DNA from: an uncultured candidatus Brocadiaceae bacterium
Lineage (GTDB): Bacteria; Planctomycetota; UBA1135; UBA2386
Reading direction: 5' to 3'
NCBI GenBank assembly: GCA_964392305.1
Contig: CAYMPV010000029.1
Coordinates: forward strand, 3,171-67,170
DNA: 64,000 bases
Every line of letters starts with the position of its first letter. The stretch's first letter is position 1. The position numbers were made by a program, and so were the translations under genes. Positions 13,131 through 54,487 of the stretch are shown one piece after another. The notes under the pieces are model-generated. The model searched no databases and was not told where the DNA came from. It worked only from the letters and a program-made list of their open reading frames with translations.

Positions 13131-13535
13131 TCAGTCCTTGAGCATGCGCGTGAACACGTCGCTCATGCTCAGGATGCCGATCACCGCGGTGCCGTCCAGC
13201 ACGGGCATGCGCCGCACGCCGGCCATGCGCATCAGGTTGACGCAGTCGAGCAGGTTCGCCTGCATCGGAATGCAGATCGCGGGTTTGGTCATCACGTCGC
13301 GCACCTGCAGCTGATCGAGGACCTCCGCCGACTGCGTGCCGAGCACGTTGACGATGTCCTTGCTGGTGACCACGCCGGGCAGGTCCGACGGTGACTGCCC
13401 GGCGACCAGCAGTGCGCGGATGCCGTGGTTGGCCATGCGCTGACCCGCGGCGCGCAGGTTCTCGTGCGGCGCGGCCCAGTGCACGGTCTTGCTCATCGCC
13501 TCGGCGGCGTGGATCTCATGCAGGTCGACGGTCAT
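13131..13535 (-). CDS. CBS-pair domain protein
   Basis: Two CBS motifs: GIRALLVAG..GVVTSKDIV and GVRRMPVLDGTAVIGILSMSDVF. 134 aa. Confidence 0.85.
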   Translation of the reverse strand: MTVDLHEIHAAEAMSKTVHWAAPHENLRAAGQRMANHGIRALLVAGQSPSDLPGVVTSKDIVNVLGTQSAEVLDQLQVRDVMTKPAICIPMQANLLDCVNLMRMAGVRRMPVLDGTAVIGILSMSDVFTRMLKD

Positions 13536-14845
13536 GGCAGGTACTCCTCGAGGATCTGGTTCTGGTCACGGTCGTAGCGGTAACGAACGGCGTGGCGCGG
13601 CGCGTCGATGCGCAGCACGAGGTCGCCGAGTTGGATGCGCACGCCGACGTGCGCGACGTCATGGATCACGACGCTGGCGTTGTCGAGCAGTTCGCGTTGG
13701 CGGGCGATCAGGCGCAGCCGTTCGGTCTCGCTGCGGTCCTCGGCGCGCACGGCCAAGCGTGTGCCCTTGCCCTTGGAGATGCGGCCGTTGGTGTTGTCGC
13801 CGCGCGTGGCGACACGCGCGACGCGCGCTGCTTCGCTGCTCAGCTGCGCGAGTTCGTTGCGTTCGTCGAGCAGGTCGGCGATCGCGAGCAGCGTCGCCGC
13901 GCCTTCCTTGGTGCCGGCAGCGCTGACTTCGATCGAGATCTGTGCACGCAGTTCACCGCCGAACGCCTGGCCGCGACCTTCGACCAGCAGGATGCGTTCG
14001 CCGCGGGCCCGGCAATGCGCCAGCTGGTCGTGCACGAGGATCGTGCCGCCCGCCTGCAGCTGGGCGGCGGTGGCATGGCGGCAGCTCAGGTCGACGCCGG
14101 CGGTCACCTCGCTCTGCGTGCCGAGGATGCCCTGGTCGACGTGCACGCTGCCGCCGGCGGTGACCTTCGCCGACTGCACCACGCCGCGCACCATGACGTC
14201 GCCGGTCGCCGTCGCGGCGAAACCGTCGCCGACGTCGCCGGTGACCTCGAGCGACCCCTCGCTGTGCAGGTTGCCGGACTTCAGGTCGACGTCGCCGCGG
14301 TGTTGGTAGAGCGGCACGACGTCGATGGTCTTGTCGTCGGCCAGCACCACGCCGCCGCGGCTCGCGAGGATCTTGTCGTCGGCGAGGCGGGCGCCGGGGC
14401 CCAGGCGGAACTTCGCTGCGGCGCCCGGCCTGGCCGGCAGCGGCCGGCCGCGCACGTCCTTGCCGGCGGTTCCCGCGGTCGGCGCATGCACGCTGGCGAT
14501 GTGCTCGTCGGGACCGATCGGCTGCAGCAGGCGCCGTTCGCGGAAGTCGACGTGCCCGTCCTTGCACACCTCACCGATGGTCTGGCCGAGCGTGAACTGC
14601 GGATCGAGACGACCGTTGGCGCCGTGTTGCGGCGCGACGCCGTTGGCCACGACGTGCTCACCGGCGTGATCGGGGTCGAGCAGCAGCTCGGCCAGCGCGC
14701 GCAGCGCGGCTTCGTCATGGCCGAAGACCACGCCGGCGCGTTGCAGTTCGGCGTCGAGCTCGGCGCGCGACGCCGCCGCGCCGGCGCTGACCTTGGCCAC
14801 GGCGGACAGACCATCCGCGGCGATGTTGACGACCAGCCGATTCAC
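13532..14845 (-). CDS. DUF342 / FapA (flagellar assembly protein A-like) family protein
   Basis: Central beta-helix-like repeats: GDVDLKSGNLHSEGSLEVTGDVGDGFAATATGDVMVRGVVQSAKVTAGGSVHV. C-terminal coiled-coil region. 4-nt overlap with the downstream CBS gene. Confidence 0.8.
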   Translation of the reverse strand: MNRLVVNIAADGLSAVAKVSAGAAASRAELDAELQRAGVVFGHDEAALRALAELLLDPDHAGEHVVANGVAPQHGANGRLDPQFTLGQTIGEVCKDGHVDFRERRLLQPIGPDEHIASVHAPTAGTAGKDVRGRPLPARPGAAAKFRLGPGARLADDKILASRGGVVLADDKTIDVVPLYQHRGDVDLKSGNLHSEGSLEVTGDVGDGFAATATGDVMVRGVVQSAKVTAGGSVHVDQGILGTQSEVTAGVDLSCRHATAAQLQAGGTILVHDQLAHCRARGERILLVEGRGQAFGGELRAQISIEVSAAGTKEGAATLLAIADLLDERNELAQLSSEAARVARVATRGDNTNGRISKGKGTRLAVRAEDRSETERLRLIARQRELLDNASVVIHDVAHVGVRIQLGDLVLRIDAPRHAVRYRYDRDQNQILEEYLP

Positions 14846-17686: not shown

Positions 17687-17836
17687 CGCGGGAGGCGCAC
17701 GATACGGATCCGGGCTGCGGTCGGCAGCCGTGCCCGTGCTTCTTACGTTCTCGCGACAGCGTGCGTGCCGGCCGTGCCAAGGGCGCTTGCCGCGCCACTC
17801 ATCCTCACCACCGGGAGCGTCGATGAGACCGGGGCA

Positions 17837-18685
17837 ATGACTACCGCGACCTCCGACCTGTCCAGGTTGTTCGCCCGCAAGATCGACGAGAAGAAGCTCA
17901 GTCTGCCCACCATGCCCGGCACCGCCGCGGAAGTGATGGAGCTGTGTCAACTCGAGGACACCGACGCGGCCAAGCTGTCGGCGGTCATCCATCGCGACCA
18001 GACGATCGCCTCGCACGTGTTGCGCGTGGCCAACTCGGCGGCCTACGCCGGCCAGATGCCGTGTGCCTCGCTGCAGCAGGCGGTCAGCCGCCTCGGCCTG
18101 CAGTTGATCACCGAGATCGCCATGGCGGTGTCGGTGAAGGGCCGCATCTTCGGCAACCAGACCTGCGCCGAGCTGCTGGCGGCGCTGTGGAAACACTCGG
18201 TGCTGACCGGCTTCTACACCAAGGAGATCGCGCGGTTGCGGCGGCGCAACGTCGAGATCGCGTTCCTGTGCGGGCTGCTGCACGACGTCGGCAAGGCCGT
18301 GCTGCTCGACAACGTCGATCGCGTGCTCGGCAAGAACGAGCTGACGGTGCCGGTCGGCTACCTGCTCAACGCCGTGCACGAACAGCACATCGAGGCCGGC
18401 GTCTTGCTTGCCGTCGAGTGGAAGCTGCCCGAGCAGATCGCCGAGGCGATCGGCCACCACCACGACTACGTCACCGCGCCGCGTTTCGCCGACATGGCGA
18501 TGACGGTGTGCCTCGCCGACCAGTTGAGCCACCTGGTCGCGCCCAGTCCGTTCGGCGCCGCGCCCGACGAGGAAGAGCTGCGTGCGCATCCGGTGCTCGC
18601 CGGGCTCAACCTGTATCCCGACCAGCTCGACGAACTGATCCGACAGCGCGACCGCGCCCTCTTGGTCACGGAGAGCATGCGATGA
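17837..18685 (+). CDS. HDOD domain signalling protein
   Basis: ATG at 17837. LPTMPGTAAEVMELC, VLRVANSAAY, SLQQAVSRLGL, GLLHDVGKAVLL. Confidence 0.85.
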   Translation: MTTATSDLSRLFARKIDEKKLSLPTMPGTAAEVMELCQLEDTDAAKLSAVIHRDQTIASHVLRVANSAAYAGQMPCASLQQAVSRLGLQLITEIAMAVSVKGRIFGNQTCAELLAALWKHSVLTGFYTKEIARLRRRNVEIAFLCGLLHDVGKAVLLDNVDRVLGKNELTVPVGYLLNAVHEQHIEAGVLLAVEWKLPEQIAEAIGHHHDYVTAPRFADMAMTVCLADQLSHLVAPSPFGAAPDEEELRAHPVLAGLNLYPDQLDELIRQRDRALLVTESMR

Positions 18686-20918: not shown

Positions 20919-21590
20919 ATGAACAAGCGAGTCGGCGTGATCTTGTCCGGATGCGGTTTCCTCGACGGTTCGGAGGTGCACGAGTCGGTGCTGACCCTGA
21001 TGCATCTCGACCGCCACGGTGTCGAGATCGTTTGCACGGCCCCTGACGGTCACCAGCACGACGTGGTCGATCACGTTGCCAAGAAGCCCATCGAGGGGGC
21101 CACGCGCGCGATGCTGAGCGAGGCCGCGCGCATCGCCCGCGGCCGGATCACGCCGCTGAGCAAGATCGATCCGGAAACCCTGGACGCCGTGGTGATGCCC
21201 GGCGGTTTCGGCGCGGCCAAGAGCCTGTCGAACTTCGCGGTGCGCGGCGCGGCAGGTTCGGCCAACCCCGAGGTGGCGCGGTTGCTGGTCACGATGCACG
21301 CGGCCGGCAAGCCGATCGGTGCGATCTGCATCGCCCCGGCGGTGGTGGCCCTGGTGCTGGGCAAGGAACACCCCAAGCTGACCATCGGCAACGACGCGGG
21401 CACCGCCAAGGCGCTCGAACAGCTCGGCGCCGCGCACGTCGACTGCGCCGTCACCGATTGCGTGATCGACGCCGACCGACGGATCGTCAGCACACCCGCC
21501 TACATGTACGACGCGCGGGTGCACGAGGTCGCCCAGGGCATCGGCAAACTCGTCGACGCCGTCGTGGCGATGATGGGAGCGACTCCGTGA
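20919..21590 (+). CDS. elbB: ElbB-type DJ-1/PfpI family glyoxalase
   Basis: ATG at 20919 preceded by AGGAG. MNKRVGVILSGCGFLDGSEVHESVL, VMPGGFGAAK, GAICIAP, STPAYM. Confidence 0.85.
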   Translation: MNKRVGVILSGCGFLDGSEVHESVLTLMHLDRHGVEIVCTAPDGHQHDVVDHVAKKPIEGATRAMLSEAARIARGRITPLSKIDPETLDAVVMPGGFGAAKSLSNFAVRGAAGSANPEVARLLVTMHAAGKPIGAICIAPAVVALVLGKEHPKLTIGNDAGTAKALEQLGAAHVDCAVTDCVIDADRRIVSTPAYMYDARVHEVAQGIGKLVDAVVAMMGATP

Positions 21591-22396
21591 AGCGGGCCGT
21601 CCCGGCCAAGGGCTCACTGCACGACAAGTCACTGCGCGGCAAGAAGGCTCTGGTGACCGGCGGCGGCACGGGCATCGGCGCGGGCATCGCCCTGGCCCTG
21701 GCCGAGGCGGGCGCCGACGTGGCGGTGCTCGGTCGGCGGCGCGCGCCGCTGCAGAAGACGGTGACCGCGATCGGCAAGCTGCGCCGCAAGGCCGTCGCCG
21801 TCACCGCCGACGTCACCGACCGCGACGCCGTGGCTCGCGCCGTCGCACGCGCCGCCAAGGCGCTCGGCGGCCTCGACATTCTCGTCAACAACGCCGGCGT
21901 CGGCGGCCCGAACGGCAACGGCGTACCGGGCCCCGACCGCTGGGATCAGATCGTGCGCACCAACCTCGACGGCGTCTACTTCGCCACCGCGGCGGCGCTC
22001 GCGCACGTTCCCGACGGCGGCCGCATCGTCAACATCAGCTCCGTGCTCGGCCGCTTCGGCGTGCCCGGCTACACGGCCTACTGCGCCAGCAAGCACGGCG
22101 TGGTCGGGTTCGGCAAGGCGCTCGCGCTCGAACTGGCGCCGCGCGAGATCACCGTCAACACGATCTGTCCCGGCTGGGTCGACACCGAGATGGCGCACGC
22201 GGGGCTGCAGCTGATGGCCGACGGCATGGGCGTGTCGTTCGACGAGGCGATGAAGACCGCGATGGCGGCGGTGCCGCTCGGTCGCATCCTGCAGCCCGAC
22301 GAGATCGGCGGTCTCGTCGTGTGGTTGTGTTCGCCCGCAGCGCGCGGCATGACCGGGCAGGCGATCAGCCACTGCGGCGGTCAGGTCATGTGGTGA
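21587..22396 (+). CDS. SDR-family oxidoreductase (FabG-like)
   Basis: GTG at 21587 overlaps the elbB stop (GTGA). ALVTGGGTGIG, NNAG, YCASKHG (YxxxK), ICPGWVDTEM. Confidence 0.9.
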   Translation: MKRAVPAKGSLHDKSLRGKKALVTGGGTGIGAGIALALAEAGADVAVLGRRRAPLQKTVTAIGKLRRKAVAVTADVTDRDAVARAVARAAKALGGLDILVNNAGVGGPNGNGVPGPDRWDQIVRTNLDGVYFATAAALAHVPDGGRIVNISSVLGRFGVPGYTAYCASKHGVVGFGKALALELAPREITVNTICPGWVDTEMAHAGLQLMADGMGVSFDEAMKTAMAAVPLGRILQPDEIGGLVVWLCSPAARGMTGQAISHCGGQVMW

Positions 22397-22481: not shown

Positions 22482-24116
22482 CTACCGGTATCGAAGTGTG
22501 TGCTCACCATGGTCGACCGCCTCGGTGGCCGGCTGACCGTCGACAAGCACCTGCACCGTGGCCGTGCGCCATGCTTCGAGCGTGACGAGCGTTGCGCCGA
22601 CCAGCAGCAGCGTGCGCGGTCTCGGCAGACGCGAGCAACACGCGGCCAGCCCGATCGCGACGAACGGCACGAGCAGCGCGCCTTGGCGCGCGTAGCCGAA
22701 GAACGCGGCGATCACGACGACCTTGGTCGACGCGATCACCAGCCACGGCCACAGCCACGGCTGCCGGCGCAGGCGCCACAGGCCGAACGCGGCGGCGGCG
22801 AAGACGAGCGCGCGCCAGACCTGTGGCCACCAGCCCGTGGCGACGACCATGTCCACGGGTCGGCGTTCGCCCGACAGGCCGATCGGCAGGTTGTAGCCAC
22901 CGAGACCCGGCAGCGCGCCGGCGGCCGCGTGGTGCAGCTTCTTCGCGATCCGGCCGGCGCCGCCGAGCGGGTCGGCGCCGAGTTCGTGCAGGCCGAGCGC
23001 GTAGCCGTGTTCGAGGGCGTGCAGGTGCGGCGGATAGCTCAATGCGAGCTGGCCGCCGCGCGGCAGCACGTTGCGCAGGCCCGGTGGGTATCGTTCGTCG
23101 CCGCCGATGAGCGGCGGCGGACGGTCGAGCGCGGCGTTCGAGAAGCCGCCGGCCGCTTCGGGCGTGTTGGCGAGGAAGAAGTTGAGGCCGCCGTAGAGGC
23201 AGACGAACGGCGTGGGCAGCGGCTGTGGCCAGCAGCCGTAGGCCTGCACGACGACGTCGAGATCCTCTGCGGTGACCTCGCGCGCGCCGCGCACGCGCAT
23301 CGTGTCCTGCACGAAACCGAACACGGGACCTTGCTGGAACGCGGGCAAGGTGTGCAGTCGCGCCAGCGCGTCGGCGGTCCACGGCAGACCGCCCGGTGTC
23401 GCCCGGCCGGCGGGCGGCAGCTGCGGGGCGCCCGCGGTGTTGTAGTCGGCGACGAGGGCCGCGGCGCGCAGCTGCCAGGGCAGCAGCGCGACGAGCGCGG
23501 CGCCGAGCGCGAGCGAGAGGCTGCGGGTCCGTCGCGGCGCGCGCTGCAGCGCCAGCACCAAGAGCAGCGCCGCGAACGTCAGCGTGTGTTCGGCGCGCAG
23601 CAGCACCATGGCCGCGTGCAGCAGGCCCCAGCGCAGGGCCGCGGCCGCGGTGGGGGATGTGCGCAGGCGTTCCTGGTCGAACAGCGAGAGCAACAGCAGC
23701 ACGAGGTACGGCAGCTCGGAGTGCAGGCCGCTGCCCAGCAGCAAGAGCGGGGTCGCGGCGGCGCAGAGCCCGCCGGCGAGCGCGGCGCGTTGTTCAACCT
23801 GGTGGTGGCGCAGCAGCAGGAACATCAGCGGCGCGATCGTCGCGCCGAGCACGGCGAACAACAGGCGCAGACGCCACGCGGTCGCCGGGTCGCCGTTCCA
23901 CAAGCTCGACACCAGCCAGTGCATGCCGGGCGGGCGCAGCGGCAGTCGCAGCAGTTCGTCGGGAACGCCGTGAGCTTGCTTGGCCGCGAGCTCTTGCCAC
24001 AGAGGCGCATCGCCCTGGAAGGCGACGTCCCACGCCGGTGTCGACGCGGCGCCGCCGAGCCAGAAGCACAGCCGCAGGGCGAGCCCGAACAGCAGCAGGA
24101 CCAGGGCCGTGCGCAC
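22482..24116 (-). CDS. polytopic membrane protein, possibly GT-C (family 39/ArnT-like) glycosyltransferase
   Basis: More than 10 hydrophobic segments with a soluble loop or C-terminal region. The overall architecture resembles ArnT/PMT enzymes, but I recognise no diagnostic motif with certainty. Confidence 0.45.
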   Translation of the reverse strand: MRTALVLLLFGLALRLCFWLGGAASTPAWDVAFQGDAPLWQELAAKQAHGVPDELLRLPLRPPGMHWLVSSLWNGDPATAWRLRLLFAVLGATIAPLMFLLLRHHQVEQRAALAGGLCAAATPLLLLGSGLHSELPYLVLLLLSLFDQERLRTSPTAAAALRWGLLHAAMVLLRAEHTLTFAALLLVLALQRAPRRTRSLSLALGAALVALLPWQLRAAALVADYNTAGAPQLPPAGRATPGGLPWTADALARLHTLPAFQQGPVFGFVQDTMRVRGAREVTAEDLDVVVQAYGCWPQPLPTPFVCLYGGLNFFLANTPEAAGGFSNAALDRPPPLIGGDERYPPGLRNVLPRGGQLALSYPPHLHALEHGYALGLHELGADPLGGAGRIAKKLHHAAAGALPGLGGYNLPIGLSGERRPVDMVVATGWWPQVWRALVFAAAAFGLWRLRRQPWLWPWLVIASTKVVVIAAFFGYARQGALLVPFVAIGLAACCSRLPRPRTLLLVGATLVTLEAWRTATVQVLVDGQPATEAVDHGEHTLRYR

Positions 24117-24135
24117 GCGCGCACCATAACGAAGC

Positions 24136-24166
24136 GGGGCAGCCGGGCCAAAGGCGCGGCTGCCCC
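24136..24166 (-). terminator. hairpin downstream of the metalloprotease gene
   Basis: Perfect 10-bp stem GGGGCAGCCG / CGGCTGCCCC with an 11-nt loop. On the minus strand it is followed by GCTTCGTTAT (weak U-tract). Confidence 0.45.
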
Positions 24167-24197
24167 ACGGGTGGCACTGCGAGGCCGTGTCAGGCGA

Positions 24198-27100
24198 TCA
24201 CGGCGTCTGCGTGAACAGGTTGAACCACTGGTTCGACGTGATCAGGTTGGTGTAGGTCGCGTCGAACGTGACCACCTGGCTGTACCAGGTCAGGCCCACC
24301 GCGGTGCTGATCAGCGGCGCGCCGAACGACGCGGCGTAGTCACCGGTGGCGTTGCTGACGTCACCGAGCACGAAGTAGTTGCCGCCGACGAACACGGGCG
24401 GAACGTTCGGGATCAGCGTCGGGCCGATCGCGTCGCCGATCGCGAGCGCGAAGATCGTCGTCGGACCCGGGGTGTGGATCGCGATGTTGATCGGCGTGCT
24501 CTGTGCAGCCTGCTCGGGCAGCATCGTCAGGGTCGCGTCGAGCGGCGGCGTGAAGCGCGTGCCGAGTTCGACATCGTCGATGTTCCAGCCGCCCAGCTGC
24601 AATCCGGCGTCGCTCTTGAGGCGCCACTCGATCTGCACCGCGGGGTTGTTGTCGGCCATCGGGATCGCGTACTCGACCGACTGCCACGAGGTGTCGACGA
24701 GGTGGCCGGATTGCGGGTTCTGCCAGACCTGGATGCCGTTCACGAACAGCGTCGCCTGATCGTACGCGCCCTCCTCGACGGTCAGCCAGCGCCGAAAGCG
24801 CAGGGTCATGCCGAAGCGGCCCGAGCAGTTGACCACCGGCGAGCGCAGGTAGTTCTCGACGTTGGCGGCGTAGGCGCCGTTCCAGTTTGTAGTGCCGATC
24901 GTGTTGCCGAGGTCGTTGCCGTAGACGTTCGTGCCCGAGTAGGCGGTCTGCGGGTCGGCCCAGAAGACGCTCGAACTGGTGCCCGAGCGGCCCGCCGGAT
25001 CCCCGACCTGCCAGTCGTTCTGGGCCAGCACCTGCGCGTTGGTCCAGCCCGACAGGGCGCCGTCGAAGTTCTCGAGCCAGAAGCCCGTGAACGGTCCGGT
25101 CGGGGGCACACTGACGATGTAGGAGTTCTCGCCGGTCTCGGGCAGGCGCACGGTGACGTTGCTGCTGTGCACGGCCTCGATGTGGTAGCTGACGGAGCCG
25201 CTCATGACCGCGGGCAGCACGGCCTCGTAACCGTTGGTGAAGCCGTTCGGCTTCATGTTGCGCACCTGCGCACCGCTGCCGGCGTTGTAGTGCAAGCGCA
25301 CCGCGGTAATGGTGCCGCCGGAGGTCGGCGCCACGGTCGCCGCGACCTTGCGGGGCACGAGGCGGGCCGCCGTGTTGCCGAGCGGCGTGTGCGCGATCGA
25401 CGCGACCTGGATCTGCGGGTACGGGATGCCCTTGATCACAGCCGCCGCGCTGAGTTCGGCGTAGTGCGGTACGCCGTTGAGCAGGTTGCCGTCGTTGTCG
25501 TCGGCGATGAACACCTCACGCACCGCGTCGACGCGCGTCGTGGCGTCGGCGACGATCGAGCCGACGACGATGTCGTCGGAGACGGCGATGGCCTGGGTCG
25601 TGCCGAGCGAGGTGCGCAACTGCTGCCGCAGCTGCCAGGCAAAACCCATCCACACCTGACCCGCCGCGTGCGGCGACGTGCTCGAGTACGGATAGACGCG
25701 CGTGTTGTCACCGCGGCGCAGCGCGACGCCGGCCGACTGGAAGCCGCTGCCGAGCAGCGGGCTGTCGACGAGATACATGCCGAGGATGTCGCCCCAGCCT
25801 TCGCTCACACCTTCAGCGTTGCTGTTGGCGATGCCGCCGTAGCGATCGTCGAGGCCGTGGCCCCACTCGTGGGCGATGACGGTCGAGAACGCCGTATTCG
25901 CGCAGCCGCCGCCGGCGTTGTAGAAGTTGATCGAGTTGCCGGTGTAGTAGGCGTTGCAAGTCGAGGCGATGTTGACCGTCGGCCGCACCGTGCTCGCGGT
26001 GTTGAGCTGGGAGCTGTTGCCCAGGATCGTGCGGCACCACTCGTTGACGCGGTCGGTCCAGTAGTGCGTGGCGGCGTGCGCGGCTTCGTTCGTGCTCGCG
26101 GCGGCCGTCGACAACTGCAGCGTCGCGGCCACACCCGGCGTCACGGTGACGTTGCCGGTCGGCGAGTTGGCGCCCGCGATCGGTTGGTAATGGCTGCCGT
26201 CGAACTGGCTGAACGAGATCGTGACCGGCGCGTTGATGTCGATCGTGATCTGGCCGTTCTGGTCGGTCGTGTAGGTGCCGAGGCCGGGCACGTTGAGCAC
26301 CACGCCCTGCAAGGCCGTGTTCACGAGCGCGCTGTAGGCGTCGTCGCCCGAACGCGTCCAGCACATCAGCGTGACCGTCGTCGGCACCGGCGCGGCGAGC
26401 GGGGCCGGTCCCACACGCTCGGTGCGGGCGAGACCGTGGTGGGCGTTGTTGCACTCGGCGTAACCGCACTCGTGCTTGTCGCTCACGTAGTGCAGCAGGG
26501 CGCCGGTCTGGGCGTCGACGTAGTGGCGACCGATGGGGCCCTGGCCCTCGCGGTCGACGTTGCTGACCGGCACTTCCCAGGCCAGGAAGAACGGTGCGCT
26601 CTCGCCGGCCTCGATGTCGCCCCAGATCACCAGGCGCGGCTGCCGCGCGTCACCGGGCTGCGCGACGCCGGTCGGCGTGCCCGCTGCGTTCCAGGCGATC
26701 GCCACGGCGACCTGCTCGGCGACGGCGGGCTGGGTGTTGAAGTTGGCCGGGATCGGCCAGGCGCGGCTGCCCAGCATCGCGATCACCCCGCTCATGTTGA
26801 TGCGCACGTCGGCGCGGCCCTCGATCACGGGCAGGCCGTTGAAGAACTGGTCGAACGTGAACGACCAGGTGCGGCCCATGCGCGCGCCGATCACTTCGCG
26901 GAACTCCGAGGTCCCCAGACCCAGCATCGCGCGGTGTGTCTGCAGTGCCGCCAGCGCGTGGCGGCGTGCCTCGACCAGCGTGTTCTCGCGCCAGTCGACG
27001 AGGCGCAGGCCGGTGCCGTAGATGGCGCTCGGCGTCACCGTTGCCGGGTGCCACTGCGCGATCCAGCGACCGCCTTCCGCCTCTTGTGCGGTGACGAAGT

Positions 27101-27251
27101 CGCGGAAGGCCGACTTCGTGGTCGTGGCCTTCGCTGGCGCCTGCTGCGCTGCGTCTTGCCGCGACCCGCCGGCTGGTTCCTGCTGTGCGGTGGTGAAAAA
27201 GGCGAGAGAGGTAACGGCGAGCGAGAAGCTCGCGAGGGCGAACGAACGCAT
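24198..27251 (-). CDS. secreted multidomain zinc metalloprotease (HEXXH; FTP/PepSY-like propeptide, fungalysin M36-like core, MAM/jelly-roll-like domain, C-terminal beta module)
   Basis: ATG at 27251 gives MRSFALASFSLAVTSLAFFTTAQQ. Propeptide-like FDQFFNGLPVIEGRADVRI. Catalytic VIAHEWGHGLDD, followed by AEGVSEGWGDILG (compare the GEGWSD motif of M36). A later domain reads WLENFDGALSGWTNAQVL..WQVGDP..YLRSPVV. Assignment to M36 rather than M4 or M6 is tentative. Confidence 0.8.
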   Translation of the reverse strand: MRSFALASFSLAVTSLAFFTTAQQEPAGGSRQDAAQQAPAKATTTKSAFRDFVTAQEAEGGRWIAQWHPATVTPSAIYGTGLRLVDWRENTLVEARRHALAALQTHRAMLGLGTSEFREVIGARMGRTWSFTFDQFFNGLPVIEGRADVRINMSGVIAMLGSRAWPIPANFNTQPAVAEQVAVAIAWNAAGTPTGVAQPGDARQPRLVIWGDIEAGESAPFFLAWEVPVSNVDREGQGPIGRHYVDAQTGALLHYVSDKHECGYAECNNAHHGLARTERVGPAPLAAPVPTTVTLMCWTRSGDDAYSALVNTALQGVVLNVPGLGTYTTDQNGQITIDINAPVTISFSQFDGSHYQPIAGANSPTGNVTVTPGVAATLQLSTAAASTNEAAHAATHYWTDRVNEWCRTILGNSSQLNTASTVRPTVNIASTCNAYYTGNSINFYNAGGGCANTAFSTVIAHEWGHGLDDRYGGIANSNAEGVSEGWGDILGMYLVDSPLLGSGFQSAGVALRRGDNTRVYPYSSTSPHAAGQVWMGFAWQLRQQLRTSLGTTQAIAVSDDIVVGSIVADATTRVDAVREVFIADDNDGNLLNGVPHYAELSAAAVIKGIPYPQIQVASIAHTPLGNTAARLVPRKVAATVAPTSGGTITAVRLHYNAGSGAQVRNMKPNGFTNGYEAVLPAVMSGSVSYHIEAVHSSNVTVRLPETGENSYIVSVPPTGPFTGFWLENFDGALSGWTNAQVLAQNDWQVGDPAGRSGTSSSVFWADPQTAYSGTNVYGNDLGNTIGTTNWNGAYAANVENYLRSPVVNCSGRFGMTLRFRRWLTVEEGAYDQATLFVNGIQVWQNPQSGHLVDTSWQSVEYAIPMADNNPAVQIEWRLKSDAGLQLGGWNIDDVELGTRFTPPLDATLTMLPEQAAQSTPINIAIHTPGPTTIFALAIGDAIGPTLIPNVPPVFVGGNYFVLGDVSNATGDYAASFGAPLISTAVGLTWYSQVVTFDATYTNLITSNQWFNLFTQTP

Positions 27252-27500
27252 GAGGGGTTGCCTTTCGGGGACTGGCGGAACGGCGCCGTGGGGAGCGGCG
27301 CACCGGTCCGGACGCAGGTCCATTCCGGAGGGCAGGCCAGGGAAGTATTGGGTGATTCGACGCACTGTCAACTGCTCGGTGTTCCCCGCGGTCCCGATTA
27401 GAGGCCGGCGCGGACTGCATCCGTCCAGGCGTAAGCACTGTGGCTGCAGCGGTTGGAGTGCGGCTCAACACCGAAGGCGCGGTTTGCCGACAAACTGCCC

Positions 27501-28535
27501 ATGAGGTCGGACCTTCGCGTCGTCGTCGTCGTGCCGAGCATCCGCCAGGAGCATCTCGAACAGTTCCTCGCGGCCTGGCGGCATGAGTTCGCGGCGGCGA
27601 CCGTGCTGGTCGTCGAGGATCACGCCGAGCGTGAGTTCGACCTGCGCCACCACGACAACGTCGTGCACCTGTGCTGGCAGGACATCGACCGCGAGATGGG
27701 TGAGGCGTCCTGGATCGTGCCGCGCATGACCGACTGCGTGCGCAGCTACGGCTATCTGCGAGCCTGGCGCATGTTGCCCGACATGATCGTGACGCTCGAC
27801 GACGATTGCCTGCCGGGGCCCGAGGGCGCCGACGGATTCCTGATGCGTCATTGGCAACGGTTGCAGGCCGGCGGCACCGACAATGCCTGGGTGTCGACCA
27901 TCGGCGGCACGGTGCCGCGCGGCGTGCCCTACTACGCCCAGCAGCGGCAACGTCGCTGTGTGGTCAACCACGGGCTGTGGACCAACGTGCCCGACTACGA
28001 CGCCGCGACGCAGTTGCTGCAGGCGCGCACGCCGACGCCGAGCACGATGATCGACCAGACGATCCCGGTCGGCAGCTACTTCCCGATGTGCGGCATGAAC
28101 CTCGCCTTCCGCCCCGAGGTGGTGCCGGCGCTGTACTTCCTGCTGATGGGGCGCAGCCACCCCGTGGATCGCTTCGGCGACATCTGGTGCGGCCTGTTCG
28201 TCAAACGCATCTGCGATCACCTGGGGCTCGCCGTCAACAGCGGCGGCCCGGCGATCGAACACCAACGCGCCTCGAACGTGTTCGCGAACCTGCGTAAGGA
28301 AGCGCCGGGCATGGAGTGGAACGAGACCCTGTGGCGCTGCATCGACGACGCGCGATTGACCGAGACCACGTTCGTGGGCTGCTATCGGCAACTGGCCGCA
28401 GCGATCGCCACTCACGGCGGCGACTACTTCGCCCGCCTGTCGGTGGCGATGCAGCTGTGGGCCGACCAGTTCGGTCCCGTGTTGCAGCCGCAGCCGCGCC
28501 CGGTGGGCAGTGTCCCGGCCACGGTCTGCGTATGA
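27501..28535 (+). CDS. reversibly glycosylated polypeptide / UDP-L-arabinopyranose mutase homologue (GT75, PF03214-like)
   Basis: ATG at 27501. Motif-by-motif match to plant RGP as I remember it. VVVPSIRQEHLEQF (plant IVIPTIRNLDFLE), TLDDDC (TIDDDC), PRGVPY (VRGYPF). NHGLWTNVPDYDAATQL (SHGLWLNIPDYDAPTQL), PMCGMNLAF (identical), YFLLMG (YFGLMG). RFGDIWCGLFVKRICDHLGL (RYDDMWAGWCIKVICDHL), HQRASNVFANLRKE (HSKASNPFVNLKKE). Confidence 0.85.
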   Translation: MRSDLRVVVVVPSIRQEHLEQFLAAWRHEFAAATVLVVEDHAEREFDLRHHDNVVHLCWQDIDREMGEASWIVPRMTDCVRSYGYLRAWRMLPDMIVTLDDDCLPGPEGADGFLMRHWQRLQAGGTDNAWVSTIGGTVPRGVPYYAQQRQRRCVVNHGLWTNVPDYDAATQLLQARTPTPSTMIDQTIPVGSYFPMCGMNLAFRPEVVPALYFLLMGRSHPVDRFGDIWCGLFVKRICDHLGLAVNSGGPAIEHQRASNVFANLRKEAPGMEWNETLWRCIDDARLTETTFVGCYRQLAAAIATHGGDYFARLSVAMQLWADQFGPVLQPQPRPVGSVPATVCV

Positions 28536-31500
28536 GTCTGCCTCCGGTCACGGTGGTGGTCGCCAGCTATCGCAAGGCGGCGACGTTGCGGGCTTGCCTC
28601 GACGCGGTGCTCGCCAGCGATCATCCCGACTTCCAGGTCCTGGTCGTCGACTCCGGCTCTGCCGACGGCACGCTCGAAGTCCTCGCGCGTCACTTCCCCA
28701 GGGTGCGTGTCGAGCACCTGCCCGGTTCCAGCCTGCCGGCGGCACTCAACCGCGGCATTGCGCTCGCCGGGCGTCGCGACGTCGTGCGCCTGCACGGCGA
28801 CGTGGTGCCGCAGCGGCGGGACTGGCTGACGCGGATGGCGACGACCGCCAACGCCACGGCATCGGTCGGCGTCGTCGGCGTCAAGCTCGTGCACGCCAAC
28901 GGCCGGATCCAGTCGCTGGGCCGCGACCTCGTCACCGGCCTGGGCTTCGGCCGCCCCGGCGACGACCGGCGCGCGTTCGAGTTCGACGACGGTCAGGGTG
29001 GCGAACCGATCGAGGTCGACGCCGTTCGCGGCGCCTGCGCCTACTATCGCCGGCAGGTGCTCGATCGCGTCGGCCTCGACGAGGCCTATGCGCCCGCGCA
29101 CGGTGACGACGACGACTTCTGCCTCGCGGCCCGCTATCACGGTTTCTCGGTGTTCGTCGACCCCGCCGTCACCGCCGTGCACCACACGCCGCACCTGTCG
29201 CGCATGACCGCGTTCGCGGGCATGCCGCAACAGGCCGATCTGGTGGCCGCCTTGTCCAGTGGCGCAGACTGTCGCGCGCGCACGTTCGCCTACTTCGCGG
29301 CCAAGTGGGGTTTCGATCCGCTGGGCCCCGATCTGCACGAGATCCGCCGGCGTTACGGGCACACGGCGATCTGCTGGCGCATCGGTGAGGCGCTGCGCTA
29401 CCCGAACGACACGCCGCAGCCGTGTGTCGACATCGCCTTCGTCACCTGCAACAGCGCCCGCGTGTTGCCGCAGATGCTCGCGGCGTTGGCTGCCACGCGG
29501 TGGCCGCACCTGCGCGCCTACGCCGTCGACAACGGCAGCACCGATGGGACGTTGTCGATCCTCGAGGACTGGGCCGGCCGGTTGCCGTTCGGGTTGCAGA
29601 TCCACCGCCTGCCGCTCAACGTCGGGGTGGCACCGGCGATGAACCTGGCGTTCACGCTGGGCTCGTCACCGCTGGTGGCGCGGCTCGACGACGACGCGAT
29701 CGTCACGCCCGATTGGCTCGAGCGTCTGGTGCCCAGGTTCGCGCAACGGCCCTTCGCGGGCGTGGTCGCGCCGCGCGTGCTGCACGCCGGTGCCGCCGAA
29801 GTGCTGCAGGCGCGACCCGGTCGTGCCTGGCCGATGGCGCTGCCGCGCGGCACGGAGCCCGTGCGTTACGACGGGTTGATGCGCCTGGGTTCGTTGTGCG
29901 GCTGCTGCAACCTGTACCGCCGCGACGTTCTCGAACGAGCCGGGTTGCTCGACATCCGCTACGCGCCGACGCAGTACGACGACACCGACCACCACATCGC
30001 CATCGCCAACCGCGGTTACGAAGTGTTGCACGACGGCACGGCGACGGTGCGCCACCTGCTCAACCAGGGACGTTCGCAGACCAGCGCTGCGATGAGCAGC
30101 GCCGTCGCCAACCAGGGCAAGCTCGTCGGCAAGTGGGGTGGTGACGTGTTGCGGCGTCTCGATCGCGGCATCGACCTGTCGAACGAAGGCCGGTTCCTGC
30201 CCGCCGATGGCGATACGAGCGCATTCCTGGCCCGGTTGCCGGCGGGCTCACCGCCGACGCCAACGCCGCACCGGCCGGATCCGCAGGTCGCGCAGTTGCT
30301 CGCCACGCGCGCCGATGGTTTTGCCGACGGCGGAGCCTTCGACGTCTACGGCCGAACCCTGCTGGCCAGCGCCGAACACGCGTTGGCCCGAGGGGATCTG
30401 GACCTGTGCAGCAGTTGCCTGTGGTTCTTGATCGACGCGTTCCCACATCTGCCCGAGGTCCTGTCGCTGCACGCGCGCCGCACCGCCGCCGAGGGTGACC
30501 TGGACGCGGCGCGTCGGCTCATGAAACGCGCCATCAACCTGCGGCCGGACGACACCACTTTACGCGCCCAGGCCGCCGCGTTGGTTGCGCCTTCGATCGC
30601 GCCGGCCAGCGCGAACCAGGCACTCGACCGGGCCGTCGTGCTGCCGCCCTACGGTGGCGGCCCGGACACGCGCCACGACCTGGCGCACGCCCTGGCCGAG
30701 GCGTCTTCGGGTCGCGTCGTGACGGAGCCCGGTAGCGTGAATGCGGCCGTCGTGCACGTGCATGCCTTCGATCTCGACGACGCGCTGCTGTTGCTCGATC
30801 AGGTCAAGGCCGCGCGCGTCGCGGCCCCCGGCGCGCACATCGTGTTGTCGCCGTGGACCTGCGACCCCGAACCCGGTGCGTGGGCAACGTACGTGCTGCC
30901 GACCCTGTTCCGGCAGGCCGAGGGCGCGGCGCTCGATGACCTGTTGGCGCAAGCCGCGATGCAGCGTCTGGTCGTCGACGGCCGCACCGACCGGCGTCGC
31001 GCGGTCGCTCCCGCGGAGTGGCTGCAGCCTTACCAGCAGCGGGTGCTCGACAACGTCGACGAAGTGGCGCCGTTCAGCGCTCACGAGGTGCGTTGGCTGC
31101 GACGACGCTTCGCCAGGCTGCCGCCCATGCGCGATCCTGCCTGGCCCGAGTGTGTTGCTGACGGTGACGACGGCGCCGCGTTCCGCCATGAGTTCGGTCA
31201 GCGTGATTTCGTCCTGGTGCCCGGGCCGTTGCAGCCCGAACACAACCAACTGCTCGCGCTGTACGCCCTGCGCGACTGGCCTTGCGTCGTGATCGGCGCC
31301 CACCCGGACCCCGGCTACGCGGAGTTGTGCCGTCGCTTCGCGGGGCCGCGCACCACCTTCCTGCCACCGGTGTCGGCGAGGATGCTGCGTTCGGCGGTCG
31401 CCGCGGCGCGCCTGGTCGCCTTGCCGACGTTCCTCGATCGGCCGACCGCCTCGCACCTCTACGCACGGGCCGCCGGCACGCCGGTGCTGTGCACCATCGG

Positions 31501-31645
31501 CAGTTCGCTGGCGCAGTGCCTGGGCAGCCTCGCGTGCCCCGTCGATCCCTGCGACGTGACGGGCATGCGCGCCGCGGCACGAGAGCAGTTCGTCGATCTC
31601 CCGGTCTTCGAACGGCAACTCGCCGCACCGAGCGGCGCGGTCTGA
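28532..31645 (+). CDS. three-domain glycosyltransferase (GT2 + GT2 + helical/TPR-like region + GT4-like C-terminal half)
   Basis: ATG at 28532 overlaps the RGP stop (ATGA). First GT2: VTVVVASYRKAATLRACLDAVLAS..VVDSGSADGT. Second GT2: VDIAFVTCNSARVLPQML..AVDNGSTDGT..ARLDDDA. Helical segment: ALARGDLDLCSSCLWFLIDAFPHLPEVLSLHARRTAAEGDLDAARRLMKRAINLRPDD. C-terminus: FVLVPGPLQPEHNQLL..LPTFLDRPTASHLYARAAGTPVLC. Confidence 0.85.
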   Translation: MSLPPVTVVVASYRKAATLRACLDAVLASDHPDFQVLVVDSGSADGTLEVLARHFPRVRVEHLPGSSLPAALNRGIALAGRRDVVRLHGDVVPQRRDWLTRMATTANATASVGVVGVKLVHANGRIQSLGRDLVTGLGFGRPGDDRRAFEFDDGQGGEPIEVDAVRGACAYYRRQVLDRVGLDEAYAPAHGDDDDFCLAARYHGFSVFVDPAVTAVHHTPHLSRMTAFAGMPQQADLVAALSSGADCRARTFAYFAAKWGFDPLGPDLHEIRRRYGHTAICWRIGEALRYPNDTPQPCVDIAFVTCNSARVLPQMLAALAATRWPHLRAYAVDNGSTDGTLSILEDWAGRLPFGLQIHRLPLNVGVAPAMNLAFTLGSSPLVARLDDDAIVTPDWLERLVPRFAQRPFAGVVAPRVLHAGAAEVLQARPGRAWPMALPRGTEPVRYDGLMRLGSLCGCCNLYRRDVLERAGLLDIRYAPTQYDDTDHHIAIANRGYEVLHDGTATVRHLLNQGRSQTSAAMSSAVANQGKLVGKWGGDVLRRLDRGIDLSNEGRFLPADGDTSAFLARLPAGSPPTPTPHRPDPQVAQLLATRADGFADGGAFDVYGRTLLASAEHALARGDLDLCSSCLWFLIDAFPHLPEVLSLHARRTAAEGDLDAARRLMKRAINLRPDDTTLRAQAAALVAPSIAPASANQALDRAVVLPPYGGGPDTRHDLAHALAEASSGRVVTEPGSVNAAVVHVHAFDLDDALLLLDQVKAARVAAPGAHIVLSPWTCDPEPGAWATYVLPTLFRQAEGAALDDLLAQAAMQRLVVDGRTDRRRAVAPAEWLQPYQQRVLDNVDEVAPFSAHEVRWLRRRFARLPPMRDPAWPECVADGDDGAAFRHEFGQRDFVLVPGPLQPEHNQLLALYALRDWPCVVIGAHPDPGYAELCRRFAGPRTTFLPPVSARMLRSAVAAARLVALPTFLDRPTASHLYARAAGTPVLCTIGSSLAQCLGSLACPVDPCDVTGMRAAAREQFVDLPVFERQLAAPSGAV

Positions 31646-31691: not shown

Positions 31692-32501
31692 TCAGCCCAG
31701 CAGATCGACGGCGCGACGCGCGGATTGCCCCGAGATCCGGATGCCGGTGATCTGCAGGCTGTGCAGGATGCGATCGCGCGTGATGTTGGCGATCTCCTGG
31801 GCGACGTCGGCGTCTTCGATGCGCGACTGGGCCGCGGCCAGGTTCTCGCGGGTCGCGGCGGACGCCGACGACGAACGCTCCAACGACGACTCGACCGCGC
31901 CGAGCTTGCTGCGCACCGACGAGACCTGGTCGATCGCCTGGTCGAGTTTGCTCAGGGTCTGCGCATCGCCGACATCGAGATCGGCGACACCGATCGCCTG
32001 ACTGCGCACGTCGGGCAGGTCCAGCGTCGTCTGTTGGCCCTGGCCGTCGACGATGGTGCGCGCCGCGGCGCCGCTCTGCGAGCCGTCGAGCAGCGACTGC
32101 TGATCGCCGAACCGCGCACCGGCGGCGTTCTGGTCGATCTGCTCGGCGAGCTGGTCGTACTCGGCCTGGATCACGTTGCGATCCTCGGCCGACAGCGTGC
32201 CGTTCTGCGCCTGCACGGTCAGCTCACGCATGCGCGCCAGTGATTCGTGGGTGTTGGCGAGCGAACCCTCGGCGGTGCGCGCCATGCTGACGCCGTCGGC
32301 GAGATTGCGTTCGCCCTGTGCCAGACCGCGCACCTCGGCGCCGAGCCGGGTCGCGATCGCCAAACCCGCGGCGTCGTCGGCGGCGCTGTTGATGCGCTTC
32401 TGCGTCGACAGGCGCGCCATGCTGGTCTGCAGGCGTTGCTGCGTCTGGTGCAGGCCGCGTTGGCCCGGATTGGCGCCGCCGCCGTGGATCGAAAGGCTCA
32501 T
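31692..32501 (-). CDS. fliC: flagellin (short, 269 aa)
   Basis: ATG at 32501. N-domain MARLSTQKRINSAADDAAGLAIATRL and MRELTVQAQNGT. C-domain VRSKLGAVESSLE, AQSRIEDADVAQEIANITRDRIL, ending VDLLG. Confidence 0.9.
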   Translation of the reverse strand: MSLSIHGGGANPGQRGLHQTQQRLQTSMARLSTQKRINSAADDAAGLAIATRLGAEVRGLAQGERNLADGVSMARTAEGSLANTHESLARMRELTVQAQNGTLSAEDRNVIQAEYDQLAEQIDQNAAGARFGDQQSLLDGSQSGAAARTIVDGQGQQTTLDLPDVRSQAIGVADLDVGDAQTLSKLDQAIDQVSSVRSKLGAVESSLERSSSASAATRENLAAAQSRIEDADVAQEIANITRDRILHSLQITGIRISGQSARRAVDLLG

Positions 32502-42604: not shown

Positions 42605-44155
42605 TCACCAGCGCAGCGTCTCGATCGTGGTCAGCGTCGCGCTCGCGCCCTGGCCGCCGAGCAGCAGCACCGTGCCGTCGGGCAGCAGCGCGCTGTTGTG
42701 GCCGCTGCGCGGCGAGGTCAGGTTGGGCAACGGCGACCAGCTGTTGGTGTTCGGGTCGAACAGTTCGACGCCGTCGATGCTGGCGGGGGTCGTCAACGTG
42801 CCCTGCGCGCCGCCGCAGACGACGACGCGGCCGTCGGCGAGTCGGGTGGCCGAGTGCAGCGCCCGCGCCGTGCTCATGTTCGCGGTCGACCAGCTGTTGG
42901 TGGTCGGGTTGTAGAGCTCGGCGCCGACGATCGGCGCCGCGTTGGCGGCGCCGGCGAGGTTGGGCACGTTGGTGCCGCCCGTCATCAGCACGCGGCCGTC
43001 GTTCAGCGTCACCTGGTTGTACTGATGGCCGGCGCGTCCCTGGCTCATGTTCGGGCCGTTGCTCCAGGCGTTGGTGTTGGGGTTCCAGCGCTGCACGTTG
43101 GGCGTGCTCACCGCCGAGATCGGGATGCCGAACAGCAGGCCGACCTCGACGCCGCCACTGACCATCACCTGGTTGTTGCTCAGCAGCGTCAGCGCCGGCG
43201 CCAGGCGGCGACCGCCGATGTTGGGTGCGCTGCTCCACGTGCCCGTAGCCGGGTTGAAGATCTCGGCCGAGTTCAGCGTGCTGGTGATCGCGGTGACCGT
43301 GTCGACCAGGCTCGAAGTGCCACCCGCGACCATGACGCGGCCGTCGGCGAGCAGGCAGGCGGCGTGCAGCACGCGCGCCGTCGCCATGCTGCCGGTGTTG
43401 CTGAAGCTGTTGGTCGCCGGGTTGTAGATCTCACACGAAGACAACACGGTGCCGGTGTCGTCGGCGCCGCCGATGACCAGCACGCGGCCGTCGTTGAGCG
43501 TGACCGGCAGGTGCAACGCGCGCGCCGTGCCCATCGTCGCGCCCGCGCTCACCGTCATCGTGCGGAAGTTCCAGCGTTCGCTGGTGGCCAGGCCGGTCGC
43601 CGAGGTCAGGCTGCCCGAGCCACCGCCCGCGACGAGGAAGTCACCGGCGCCCGCGTCGTTGTCGCGATCGAAGAAGCCGGCGCCGAACGCGCGGCCCGCG
43701 AGCAGTGCCGCCGGCGCGAGCAGGCCCTGGCCGGCGATGCTGGCCTGGGTGCGCACGGCGTTGGAGATCTGCCCGATCACCGGCCCGCTGCTGTTCAGCA
43801 TCAGCGTCTGCCAGGAGAACCGCAGGTCGTGGTAGGCGGGATCGACCGGCAGGTTGAGGTTGAAGGTCGCCGCGCCGCTGCCGTTGGTGGCGTAGACGTA
43901 CCAGGCGCCGAGCAGTTCGGTGCCGACCTGCACGCTGCGCGTTTCCCCAGGCACGTAGTTGGACAGGTTGGTCGGGCCGGAGAAGAACGAGACCATCGCC
44001 ACGCCGAGGTTGTTCGCGGGTGCGTTGCTCACCGCCAGGGTCAAGGTGCTGCCGAGTGCGCCGGCGGTGCGCTTGTCGAGGTCGAAGTCGTTCTGCGCGA
44101 CGAGGATCCCGGGGAACGAACCGAGGAGGAGGAGCAGGTGCTGGCGAAGACGCAT
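42605..44155 (-). CDS. secreted Kelch-repeat beta-propeller protein with an N-terminal beta module
   Basis: Signal MRLRQHLLLLLGSFPGILVAQ. Six or more Kelch units (e.g. ARALHLPVTLNDGRVLVIGG, ARVLHAACLLADGRVMVAGG, GRAGHQYNQVTLNDGRVLMTGG, ARALHSATRLADGRVVVCGG, PRSGHNSALLPDGTVLLLGG), each followed by E(I/L)(Y/F)NP. Confidence 0.85.
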   Translation of the reverse strand: MRLRQHLLLLLGSFPGILVAQNDFDLDKRTAGALGSTLTLAVSNAPANNLGVAMVSFFSGPTNLSNYVPGETRSVQVGTELLGAWYVYATNGSGAATFNLNLPVDPAYHDLRFSWQTLMLNSSGPVIGQISNAVRTQASIAGQGLLAPAALLAGRAFGAGFFDRDNDAGAGDFLVAGGGSGSLTSATGLATSERWNFRTMTVSAGATMGTARALHLPVTLNDGRVLVIGGADDTGTVLSSCEIYNPATNSFSNTGSMATARVLHAACLLADGRVMVAGGTSSLVDTVTAITSTLNSAEIFNPATGTWSSAPNIGGRRLAPALTLLSNNQVMVSGGVEVGLLFGIPISAVSTPNVQRWNPNTNAWSNGPNMSQGRAGHQYNQVTLNDGRVLMTGGTNVPNLAGAANAAPIVGAELYNPTTNSWSTANMSTARALHSATRLADGRVVVCGGAQGTLTTPASIDGVELFDPNTNSWSPLPNLTSPRSGHNSALLPDGTVLLLGGQGASATLTTIETLRW

Positions 44156-45791: not shown

Positions 45792-45817
45792 GTCCCGCAG
45801 TCTACTGTGCTCGGCCG

Positions 45818-54317: not shown

Positions 54318-54487
54318 GCGCGTGGGAGAAGGAGCGCCTCCCAAGCCAGCGGTCATCGGCCCGCCAGGGTGGTTCCCATCGGCGGAATGATGCAGCGACC
54401 GTAAACGTTTGCGCTACGAATTGTTGACGGTCGGCGACCTGGTCGGGCGGCCGAAGCGGCGGCGGCGCCTCGGCTTGTCGCGATCGA

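Follow-up and report, generated by a model that had tools for sequence, protein, structure and literature searches.

A predicted GT75 nucleotide-sugar mutase and its conserved pairing with a giant four-module glycosyltransferase in uncultured Planctomycetota

The textbook route to furanose sugars in bacteria is the flavoenzyme Glf, which mycobacteria pair with the galactofuranosyltransferase GlfT2. To our knowledge, furanose sugars are absent from mammals and few enzyme types make them, and work on a second route, through glycosyltransferase (GT) family 75, has so far been confined to plants and two antibiotic pathways. The closest characterized bacterial members are MtdL (Marinactinospora thermotolerans, A201A pathway; PDB 7xpr, 7yua) and Hyg20 (Streptomyces hygroscopicus), GDP-L-galactose/L-fucose mutases with crystal structures (PMC9937993). 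In MtdL, D111 and H287 are the Mn2+ ligands, R159 is the likely nucleophile that forms an arginine–sugar adduct, and D260 is the general base; D195, R257, D87, D109 and Q229 are also essential, and mutating most of the catalytic residues abolishes mutase activity (PMC9937993). On the plant side stand the class-1 UDP-L-arabinopyranose mutases (UAMs) of plants and green algae, also called reversibly glycosylated polypeptides (RGPs), such as OsUAM1 and AtRGP1–3 (EC 5.4.99.30). Here we analyzed a stretch of 64,000 nucleotides (the window) from an uncultured candidatus Brocadiaceae bacterium (GCA_964392305.1, contig CAYMPV010000029.1, positions 3,171 to 67,170 of the forward strand). Its gene at 27501..28535 (+) encodes a GT75/RGP-family protein, predicted to be a Mn2+-dependent NDP-sugar pyranose–furanose mutase on the basis of PF03214, alignments to the MtdL and OsUAM2 structures, Foldseek and residue mapping. 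We consider it probable that this protein is an active ring mutase that supplies NDP-furanose to a coupled giant GT encoded directly downstream, for a furanose-containing glycan.

The gene runs from ATG to TGA and translates without a stop into 344 amino acids, and an independent gene caller produced the same 344-aa protein, together with the 1037-aa product of the next gene, on two sister metagenome contigs. A preliminary description, made from the sequence alone, had taken the protein for a bacterial RGP homologue and had listed a series of plant-type motif blocks. A hidden Markov model search bore out the family assignment: PF03214 matched with 155.7 bits (E 2.4e-45; gathering cut-off 23.8 bits) over residues 7–323 and model positions 6–336 of 342, that is, over nearly the whole model. 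All of the blocks were found, collinear, in the 344-aa translation, namely LDDDC (D100–D102, C103), PRGVPYY (R140), HGLWTNVPDYDAATQL, PMCGMNLAF, YFLLMG, RFGDIWCGLFVKRICDHLGL and ASNVFANLRKE. NCBIfam models gave no match to the protein, which accounts for the 'hypothetical protein' labels in NCBI metagenome-assembled genomes (MAGs), while IMG labels relatives 'reversibly glycosylated polypeptide/UDP-arabinopyranose mutase'.

Multisequence alignment placed the key residues of the window protein at P12, T77-D78, R81, D100-D101-D102, R140, D165-Y166-D167, G198-M199-N200, R224, D227, H254 and R256. MtdL residues D87, R90, D109–111, R159, D195, R257, D260, H287 and R289 fell on D78, R81, D100–102, R140, D167, R224, D227, H254 and R256, respectively, so the Mn2+ ligands, the nucleophilic arginine, the general-base aspartate and the phosphate-binding arginine and histidine are common to both proteins. 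The counterparts of the MtdL catalytic residues were invariant in 18 clade members and near-invariant in 137 diverse prokaryotic representatives. The DDD (DxD) metal- and nucleotide-sugar-binding motif (codons 27798..27806 (+)), which aligned with MtdL D109–D111 and with the plant DDD, was invariant in the 18 clade members and kept in at least 128 of the 137 representatives. An arginine at the R140 position (codon 27918..27920 (+)), likewise invariant in the clade, was present in 134 of the 137; on the alignments it corresponds to OsUAM1 R158 and MtdL R159, the autoglycosylated or nucleophilic arginine of these enzymes (PMC6861824, PMC9937993). Neither the catalytic DxD nor the arginine, whose loss the preliminary description had named as grounds for dropping its claim, was missing from the alignment. 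In addition, the catalytically inactive class-2 protein OsUAM2 deviates at three catalytic positions (DDN, T and R), and the window protein has none of these changes.

The structural comparison pointed the same way. A phmmer search of PDB sequences returned GT75 proteins only, led by MtdL (E 9e-25) and rice UAM2, a class-2 RGP (E 2e-22). The AlphaFold2 model, built with 18 homologues, reached a pLDDT of 83.4 and a pTM of 0.86, and Foldseek matched it best to GT75 structures (top-match E 1e-21 to 1e-23), including MtdL (E 4e-23, TM 0.70) and OsUAM2 (TM 0.73), whereas other GT-A folds came at E >= 1e-6 with TM of about 0.4 or lower. On this comparison the protein has the architecture of the family, with a Rossmann-like GT-A region at the N terminus, the GT75-specific core and a helical C-terminal region. 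Judged by these alignments, the window protein is a genuine GT75/PF03214 homologue in which every residue catalytic in MtdL is retained. It resembles MtdL and Hyg20 in family and fold and, as predicted, in being a bacterial cytosolic enzyme that supplies a glycosyltransferase. The identity to MtdL is about 34% over 228 aligned residues, with the N-terminal 70 residues unaligned by sequence, and whereas MtdL and Hyg20 belong to actinomycete antibiotic clusters, the window gene lies in a housekeeping chromosomal context.

The likeness to plant sequences raises the possibility that the gene was gained recently from a plant or green alga and acts as a plant-type UDP-L-arabinopyranose mutase in the strict sense. 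The class-1 UAMs match the window protein collinearly over the full length and share with it PMCGMNLAF, DYD, ICDHLGL, ASNxFxNL(K/R)KE, DDDC, the autoglycosylated arginine and a proline at the MtdL T13 position, and a 2019 review had found DYD in plants and DLD in the small number of bacterial sequences available at the time (PMC6861824). However, compared with plant and green-algal class-1 UAMs fetched from the database (an Arabidopsis sequence served as bait only), the window protein was 32–34% identical, against 54–80% to more than 100 prokaryotic proteins, while class-1 clade members are about 80% identical to one another. All 137 prokaryotic representatives were likewise 25–41% identical to the plant sequences, and the DYD, DFD and DLD variants all occurred within the prokaryotic clade. 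The plant 'DS' pair is 'TD' in the window protein, and the plant DGD motif is ED(H/N). In a neighbour-joining tree (62 taxa, 226 columns, 100 bootstraps, rooted on the partial MtdL sequence), plant classes 1 and 2 formed one clade on a long branch (100/100) that excluded the separate Planctomycetota clade of the window protein (100/100), which lay within the prokaryotic radiation. The gene has a native composition, with GC of 0.68 against 0.69 for the window and third-position GC (GC3) of 0.89, equal to its neighbours. A recent plant or algal origin, which the preliminary description had proposed to examine by phylogeny, is therefore very improbable. The tree appears adequate to reject a recent plant origin, though not to settle the direction of any deep-time transfer; it suggests that plants are one long branch inside a deep prokaryotic radiation of PF03214.

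That radiation is large. In a protein collection clustered at 90%, 1166 relatives were found at E <= 1e-5; the best 120 of these were 54–80% identical to the window protein, the named ones coming from Planctomycetota, Chloroflexota and Gemmatimonadota MAGs. When 1.84 billion representatives of 50% clusters were scanned exhaustively with HMMER, 1377 clusters passed E <= 1e-3, 845 passed 1e-10 and 359 passed 1e-30. A genome scan with one genome per GTDB species gave 85 loci, and the best 80 of these (L006–L085) were distributed over more than 12 phyla and one Thermoplasmata archaeon, all of them MAGs and none a cultured isolate, which may explain why the clade has gone unstudied. Bacterial and archaeal GT75 members are already listed in CAZy (PMC6861824, PMC9937993). 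The statement that the family is known mainly from plants and green algae is thus outdated, given the characterized MtdL and Hyg20 and more than 1000 prokaryotic homologues, and the window protein is a member of a large and old prokaryotic branch, so far unstudied, of this known family rather than a borrowing from plants. A literature search on RGP in Planctomycetes and on PDB entry 8CID found nothing.

What is new at this locus is the conserved partnership of a prokaryotic GT75 protein with a four-module glycosyltransferase; the enzyme family itself is known. As initially described, the two genes overlap by 4 nt: in the junction gcgtATGAgtc, the TGA stop of the GT75 gene (28533–28535) overlaps the ATG at 28532 that opens the 1037-aa reading frame with two GT2 domains. 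The resulting ATGA stop/start overlap (28532..28535 (+)), read from this sequence and from the junctions of relatives, probably couples translation of the mutase and giant-GT genes. The order of GT75 gene and giant GT recurred in relatives 55–78% identical, while all other flanking genes differed. Among the best 80 of the 85 loci, a full-length giant-GT homologue lay directly downstream of the GT75 gene in 15, all of Planctomycetota type, and was absent in the other phyla. Of these 15 loci, 12 have an (A/G)TGA overlap at the junction, one has TAATG and two have a gap of about 20–50 nt. The conservation of the overlap across loci argues for co-translation and shared function. In seven relatives, a DegT aminotransferase gene, absent from the window, followed the giant GT; its product is closest to ArnB, the UDP-4-keto-L-arabinose aminotransferase (291 bits to 8sng), and in NCBIfam its ArnB and PseC scores were about equal and below both cut-offs. 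Separately, seven Planctomycetota loci (L007, L008, L009, L012, L013, L015 and L018) carry a same-strand sodium/solute symporter gene upstream of the GT75 gene, 49–131 nt away in six and about 1.5 kb away in L015. The symporter is closest to PutP, below the equivalog cut-off, and is absent from the window.

A second arrangement came from more distant giant-GT homologues. We sampled seven loci encoding full-length homologues with 34–37% identity over 93–100% of the query, and in six of the seven (L088, L089, L091, L092, L093 and the P0323 locus) the gene immediately upstream, 36–123 nt away, encoded the flavin UDP-galactopyranose mutase Glf (PF03275, 370–400 aa); the seventh had a methyltransferase gene there. 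In these Verrucomicrobiota-type MAGs, a ring-contracting mutase is thus encoded directly upstream of a presumably furanose-consuming GT, in the slot that the GT75 gene occupies in the window, although Glf is an unrelated FAD enzyme and the window protein represents metal-dependent GT75 chemistry on a GT-A fold. We read this as non-orthologous displacement, with unrelated enzymes filling a single slot for a single function. Because pyranose-to-furanose mutases of two unrelated families precede the same GT family, the giant GT probably consumes a furanose donor, and the replacement by Glf is strong evidence, of a comparative kind, for a furanose-supplying role of the GT75 protein. The earlier proposal that a furanose sugar is made and transferred here was thereby strengthened, by the conserved gene pair as well as by the Glf slot.

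The giant GT (28532..31645 (+), 1037 aa) has the order GT-A (GT2), GT-A (GT2), tetratricopeptide repeat (TPR)-like helical repeat and GT-B (GT4-like), as assigned from Pfam, AlphaFold2, Foldseek and a profile search. Pfam recognized both GT2 domains and, weakly, a GT1/4-type domain at the C terminus (PF13692), and PF00534 or PF13692 is annotated in many homologues. From Pfam and the model (pLDDT 87), GT-A domain 1 spans about residues 1–260 (28532..29311 (+)) and contains H88-G89-D90, and GT-A domain 2 spans about residues 295–550 (29414..30181 (+)) and contains R384-L-D386-D387-D388. The TPR-like linker, at about residues 580–685 (30269..30586 (+)), was assigned from the helix pattern of the model and from profile matches to consensus TPR proteins and to the repeats of O-GlcNAc transferase (OGT). 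The C-terminal GT-B domain, at about residues 700–1031 (30629..31624 (+)), rests on the weak PF13692 match, on profile matches to the GT4 enzymes MshA and PimA and on the alternating strand–helix pattern of the model; the profile, built from 30 homologues, gave both sets of matches. The best Foldseek matches were the bifunctional polymerases with two GT-A domains, namely Escherichia coli K4 chondroitin polymerase (K4CP; E 4e-20), Pasteurella heparosan synthase 2 (PmHS2) and LARGE1, and in the model the N-terminal half superposes best on K4CP and PmHS2, while the C-terminal half shares the order of TPR and GT-B with FlmG and OGT. Sequence identity to any solved structure was 11–18%, and we know of no enzyme that combines all four modules. 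The maximum Kyte–Doolittle (KD) hydropathy of 1.37 predicts no transmembrane segment, and neither protein of the pair contains a stretch hydrophobic enough to span a membrane. Full-length homologues of the giant GT, of about 1100 aa, number about 95 and come mostly from Planctomycetota and Verrucomicrobiota. Whereas the partners of plant UAMs are Golgi arabinosyltransferases, that of the window protein is this bacterial multi-domain GT.

Taken as a mechanism, the cytosolic metal-dependent GT75 enzyme would open the pyranose ring of a nucleotide sugar via a transient arginine–sugar adduct on R140, the ring would close again as a furanose, and NDP-furanose would be set free. The soluble 1037-aa GT (GT2–GT2–TPR–GT4) would then use this scarce, thermodynamically disfavoured donor together with other donors to build an acceptor-bound oligo- or polysaccharide that contains furanose. 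Several observations weigh against this reading. No member of the GT75 clade of the window has a measured activity, and genes for precursor sugars, sought throughout the 64-kb window, were not found. In the dual GT-A polymerase type both domains would be expected to show DxD, and domain 2 of the giant GT has DDD, whereas domain 1 has HGD at residues 88–90 (28793–28801). Among 30 homologues this site was H-A-D in most, with H88 invariant and D90 nearly invariant, so that HGD/HAD is a conserved departure from the canonical GT2 motif. The positions that govern specificity and the gene contexts of relatives also give conflicting signals, as set out below.

Autoglycosylation in the family, moreover, leaves room for another role: the GT75 protein may be a self-glycosylating primer or an obligatory partner subunit, comparable with glycogenin or with plant class-2 RGPs, that releases little or no free NDP-furanose. 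GT75 proteins do autoglycosylate the conserved arginine and plant RGPs hetero-oligomerise (PMC6861824, PMC9937993), and translational coupling favours fixed stoichiometry. Yet all of the residues lost in inactive class-2 RGPs (the third aspartate of DDD, R224 and H254) are kept in the window protein, and the clade also occurs without the giant GT in other phyla. Most tellingly, Glf, a pure mutase without a primer function, fills the same slot in relatives; since the unrelated GT75 and Glf share ring contraction alone, the GT75 protein more plausibly works as a mutase than as a primer or scaffold, and the primer role seems improbable.

If the protein is a mutase, its donor product is most likely UDP-L-arabinofuranose or UDP-D-galactofuranose, with GDP-L-galactofuranose or GDP-L-fucofuranose as the alternative. 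By our own estimate for the subclade, the UDP-L-arabinose/UDP-galactose pair stands a little above even, GDP-L-galactose/L-fucose well below that, and some other substrate slightly lower again. The occurrence of Glf in the same slot tilts the substrate to the galacto/arabino series, and both plant UAMs and Glf convert UDP-L-arabinose and UDP-galactose to some extent (PMC6861824, PMC9937993). The residues themselves are divided. MtdL recognizes guanine through T13, N42 and S86 and binds the sugar through D87, S228 and the essential Q229. At these positions the window protein has plant-like Pro12 in place of T13 and plant-like G198-M199 in place of S228-Q229, and its D-Y-D is plant-like as well, whereas T77-D78 resembles MtdL S86-D87 rather than the plant D-S, and His41 matches neither the plant Asp nor MtdL N42 (most clade members have Asn). 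The S86D substitution in MtdL abolishes GDP binding, and the Asp that plants carry at the T77-D78 site is thought to exclude guanine. With plant-like and MtdL-like states mixed in this way, the specificity positions are chimeric and the substrate cannot be read from them; the initial label of a UDP-L-arabinopyranose mutase thus held as far as RGP-family homology goes, and its substrate name did not.

Gene contexts in other phyla pulled in opposite directions. There, clade members sit in polysaccharide clusters, with NDP-sugar short-chain dehydrogenases/reductases (SDRs) in about 20 loci, DegT in 16, GT4 in about 14–16 and small GT2 in 12, along with Wzx, Bac_transf and Wzz genes; the adjoining SDRs were mutually heterogeneous and fell below every NCBIfam equivalog cut-off. 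In an Acidobacteriota locus (L039), the order was GT75, GT2, GDP-mannose 3,5-epimerase (GME; 322 bits to GME structures) and GT4. In a WOR-3 locus (L063, 291–4196), GME was followed 11 nt later by a divergent GT75-like paralogue, an open reading frame (ORF) of 299 aa of unknown function and a second GT75 gene; the paralogue (311 aa) had no Pfam match at E<1e-4 and was linked by BLAST clustering only, and the pair may be a tandem duplication with specialisation. The GME genes of both loci point to GDP-L-galactose, the substrate of MtdL. By contrast, UDP-L-arabinose is suggested by a Kofleriaceae locus (L069), where genes for a UDP-glucuronate decarboxylase (UXS) that scores 402 bits against human UXS1, a true GalE (377 bits; cut-off 262) and a GH43 hydrolase lie within 4 kb. 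The active-site signature of the window protein (T-D at 77–78, R81) nevertheless recurs in both the L039 and the L069 protein, while the L063 protein has T-S and K81. Prediction of the substrate from residues 12, 41, 77, 78, 198 and 199 against neighbouring genes failed, as GME-linked L039 and UXS/GalE-linked L069 have one signature. Within the 64-kb window, no supply genes of the UXS/UDP-xylose 4-epimerase kind were found. Two window genes considered as sugar enzymes were rejected: an SDR at 21458–22396, which proved FabG-like rather than an NDP-sugar enzyme, and a UbiA protein at 44838–45893, MenA-like rather than a decaprenyl-phosphoribose enzyme of the DPA pathway.

The gene that follows the pair suggests one acceptor. 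A flagellin gene (31692..32501 (-)) lies convergent to the giant GT, the two stop codons being separated by 46 nt; Flagellin_N, Flagellin_C and NCBIfam models identify it, and since the NCBIfam models align from residue 73–86 of the long ORF, we read its start from the translation as an internal ATG giving 269 aa. The pair could therefore be a flagellin O-glycosylation module, in which the TPR region would bind flagellin as in FlmG or OGT and the GT domains would build a short furanose glycan, a reading that refines the mutase model by naming an acceptor and does not conflict with it. Two other loci have a comparable neighbourhood: L089 carries two flagellin genes and a CMP-sugar synthase-type (CTP_transf_3) gene 3–4 kb from its Glf-linked homologue, and the P0323 locus has two flagellins, FliD and FliS 2.4–8 kb away. 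That makes three of about 23 giant-GT loci linked to flagellin, against about 1% per locus expected by our own rough estimate, although common descent may account for the arrangement in both Verrucomicrobiota-type cases. FlmG, a flagellin glycosyltransferase, combines TPR and GT-B and uses its TPR domain to bind flagellins (PMC7591256); in Geobacillus, flagellin glycosylation islands include glf genes (PMC5109656); and the lack of transmembrane segments in both proteins is consistent with cytoplasmic glycosylation. TPR repeats, however, are generic protein-binding modules, and the tandem GT-A half resembles polysaccharide polymerases. A flagellin gene within 8 kb is missing from L088 and L090–L093 and from all 15 of the other GT75-linked loci, and given the latter we regard flagellin as a doubtful acceptor and keep as the default product a cytoplasmically assembled glycan of undefined kind. 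A broader proposal, that GT75 and the four-module GT form a self-contained cytoplasmic module which puts a furanose glycan on flagellin or another TPR-recognised protein and in which GT75 displaced Glf in Planctomycetota, is rather less likely still. If true, a protein-decorating module would give GT75 its first role beyond plant cell walls and the antibiotics of actinomycetes, and decorated flagellin would be the first arabino- or galactofuranosylated flagellin system.

Upstream of the pair, a 1633-aa ORF at 22500–27401 (+) had no Pfam match and is a shadow ORF, because GC3 favours two minus-strand genes beneath it. One of these, at 24198–27251/27371 (-), encodes about 1017–1057 aa with a weak, sub-threshold M36 fungalysin match, and the other, at 22482–24116 (-), encodes 544 aa with weak matches to PMT and PMT_2 GT-C families; neither the PMT_2-like nor the M36-like protein was syntenic in relatives. 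With the upstream gene on the minus strand, the predicted mutase–GT unit is transcribed divergently from its neighbour. The 249 nt between them (27252..27500, strand not assigned), delimited by the sister-contig gene calls and GC3, are presumed to hold the promoter region of the two-gene unit, and the sole sigma-70-like match in a promoter scan serves the minus-strand gene, not the mutase gene. No terminator was found 3' of the giant GT gene.

The window as a whole is an ordinary chromosomal stretch of about 69% GC that encodes FtsK, DnaB, BamA, SmpB, Dus, flagellin and FapA. Its nearest match among genomes is a Planctomycetota MAG; metagenome runs also contain the sequence, and more distant relatives come from sludge, soil and pond samples. 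Near the locus lie genes for the flagellar assembly protein FapA (13532–14845 (-)) and an HDOD protein (17765–18685 (+)); in L088 and L092, too, HDOD genes precede the giant-GT homologues by 2–3 genes. At 14 kb downstream of the locus, with no obvious link to it, lies a gene for a small Bac_transf polyprenyl-phosphate sugar phosphotransferase (45710–46441 (+)), and a six-bladed Kelch-repeat protein is encoded nearby (42605–44155 (-)). The part from 54000 to 60400 is lower in GC (0.65–0.67), encodes a GMT-like winged helix-turn-helix (wHTH) protein (55225–56622 (-)) and an AAA_14/DUF4143 ATPase (58938–60401), and may be a mobile or defence-related islet.

For the family, these results correct the view of PF03214 as a plant family: a second, metal-dependent furanose route through GT75 would be widespread in uncultured bacteria of many phyla, next to the flavin-dependent one. 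In Planctomycetota, the GT75 gene appears hard-wired to a large multi-domain glycosyltransferase, and at this position it and Glf appear to be exchangeable. The pair would thus offer a two-gene system for working out the substrate rules of prokaryotic GT75 proteins, for obtaining biocatalysts that form NDP-furanoses, and for identifying the furanose-containing glycan that the bacteria of this poorly understood phylum may make, possibly on flagellin.

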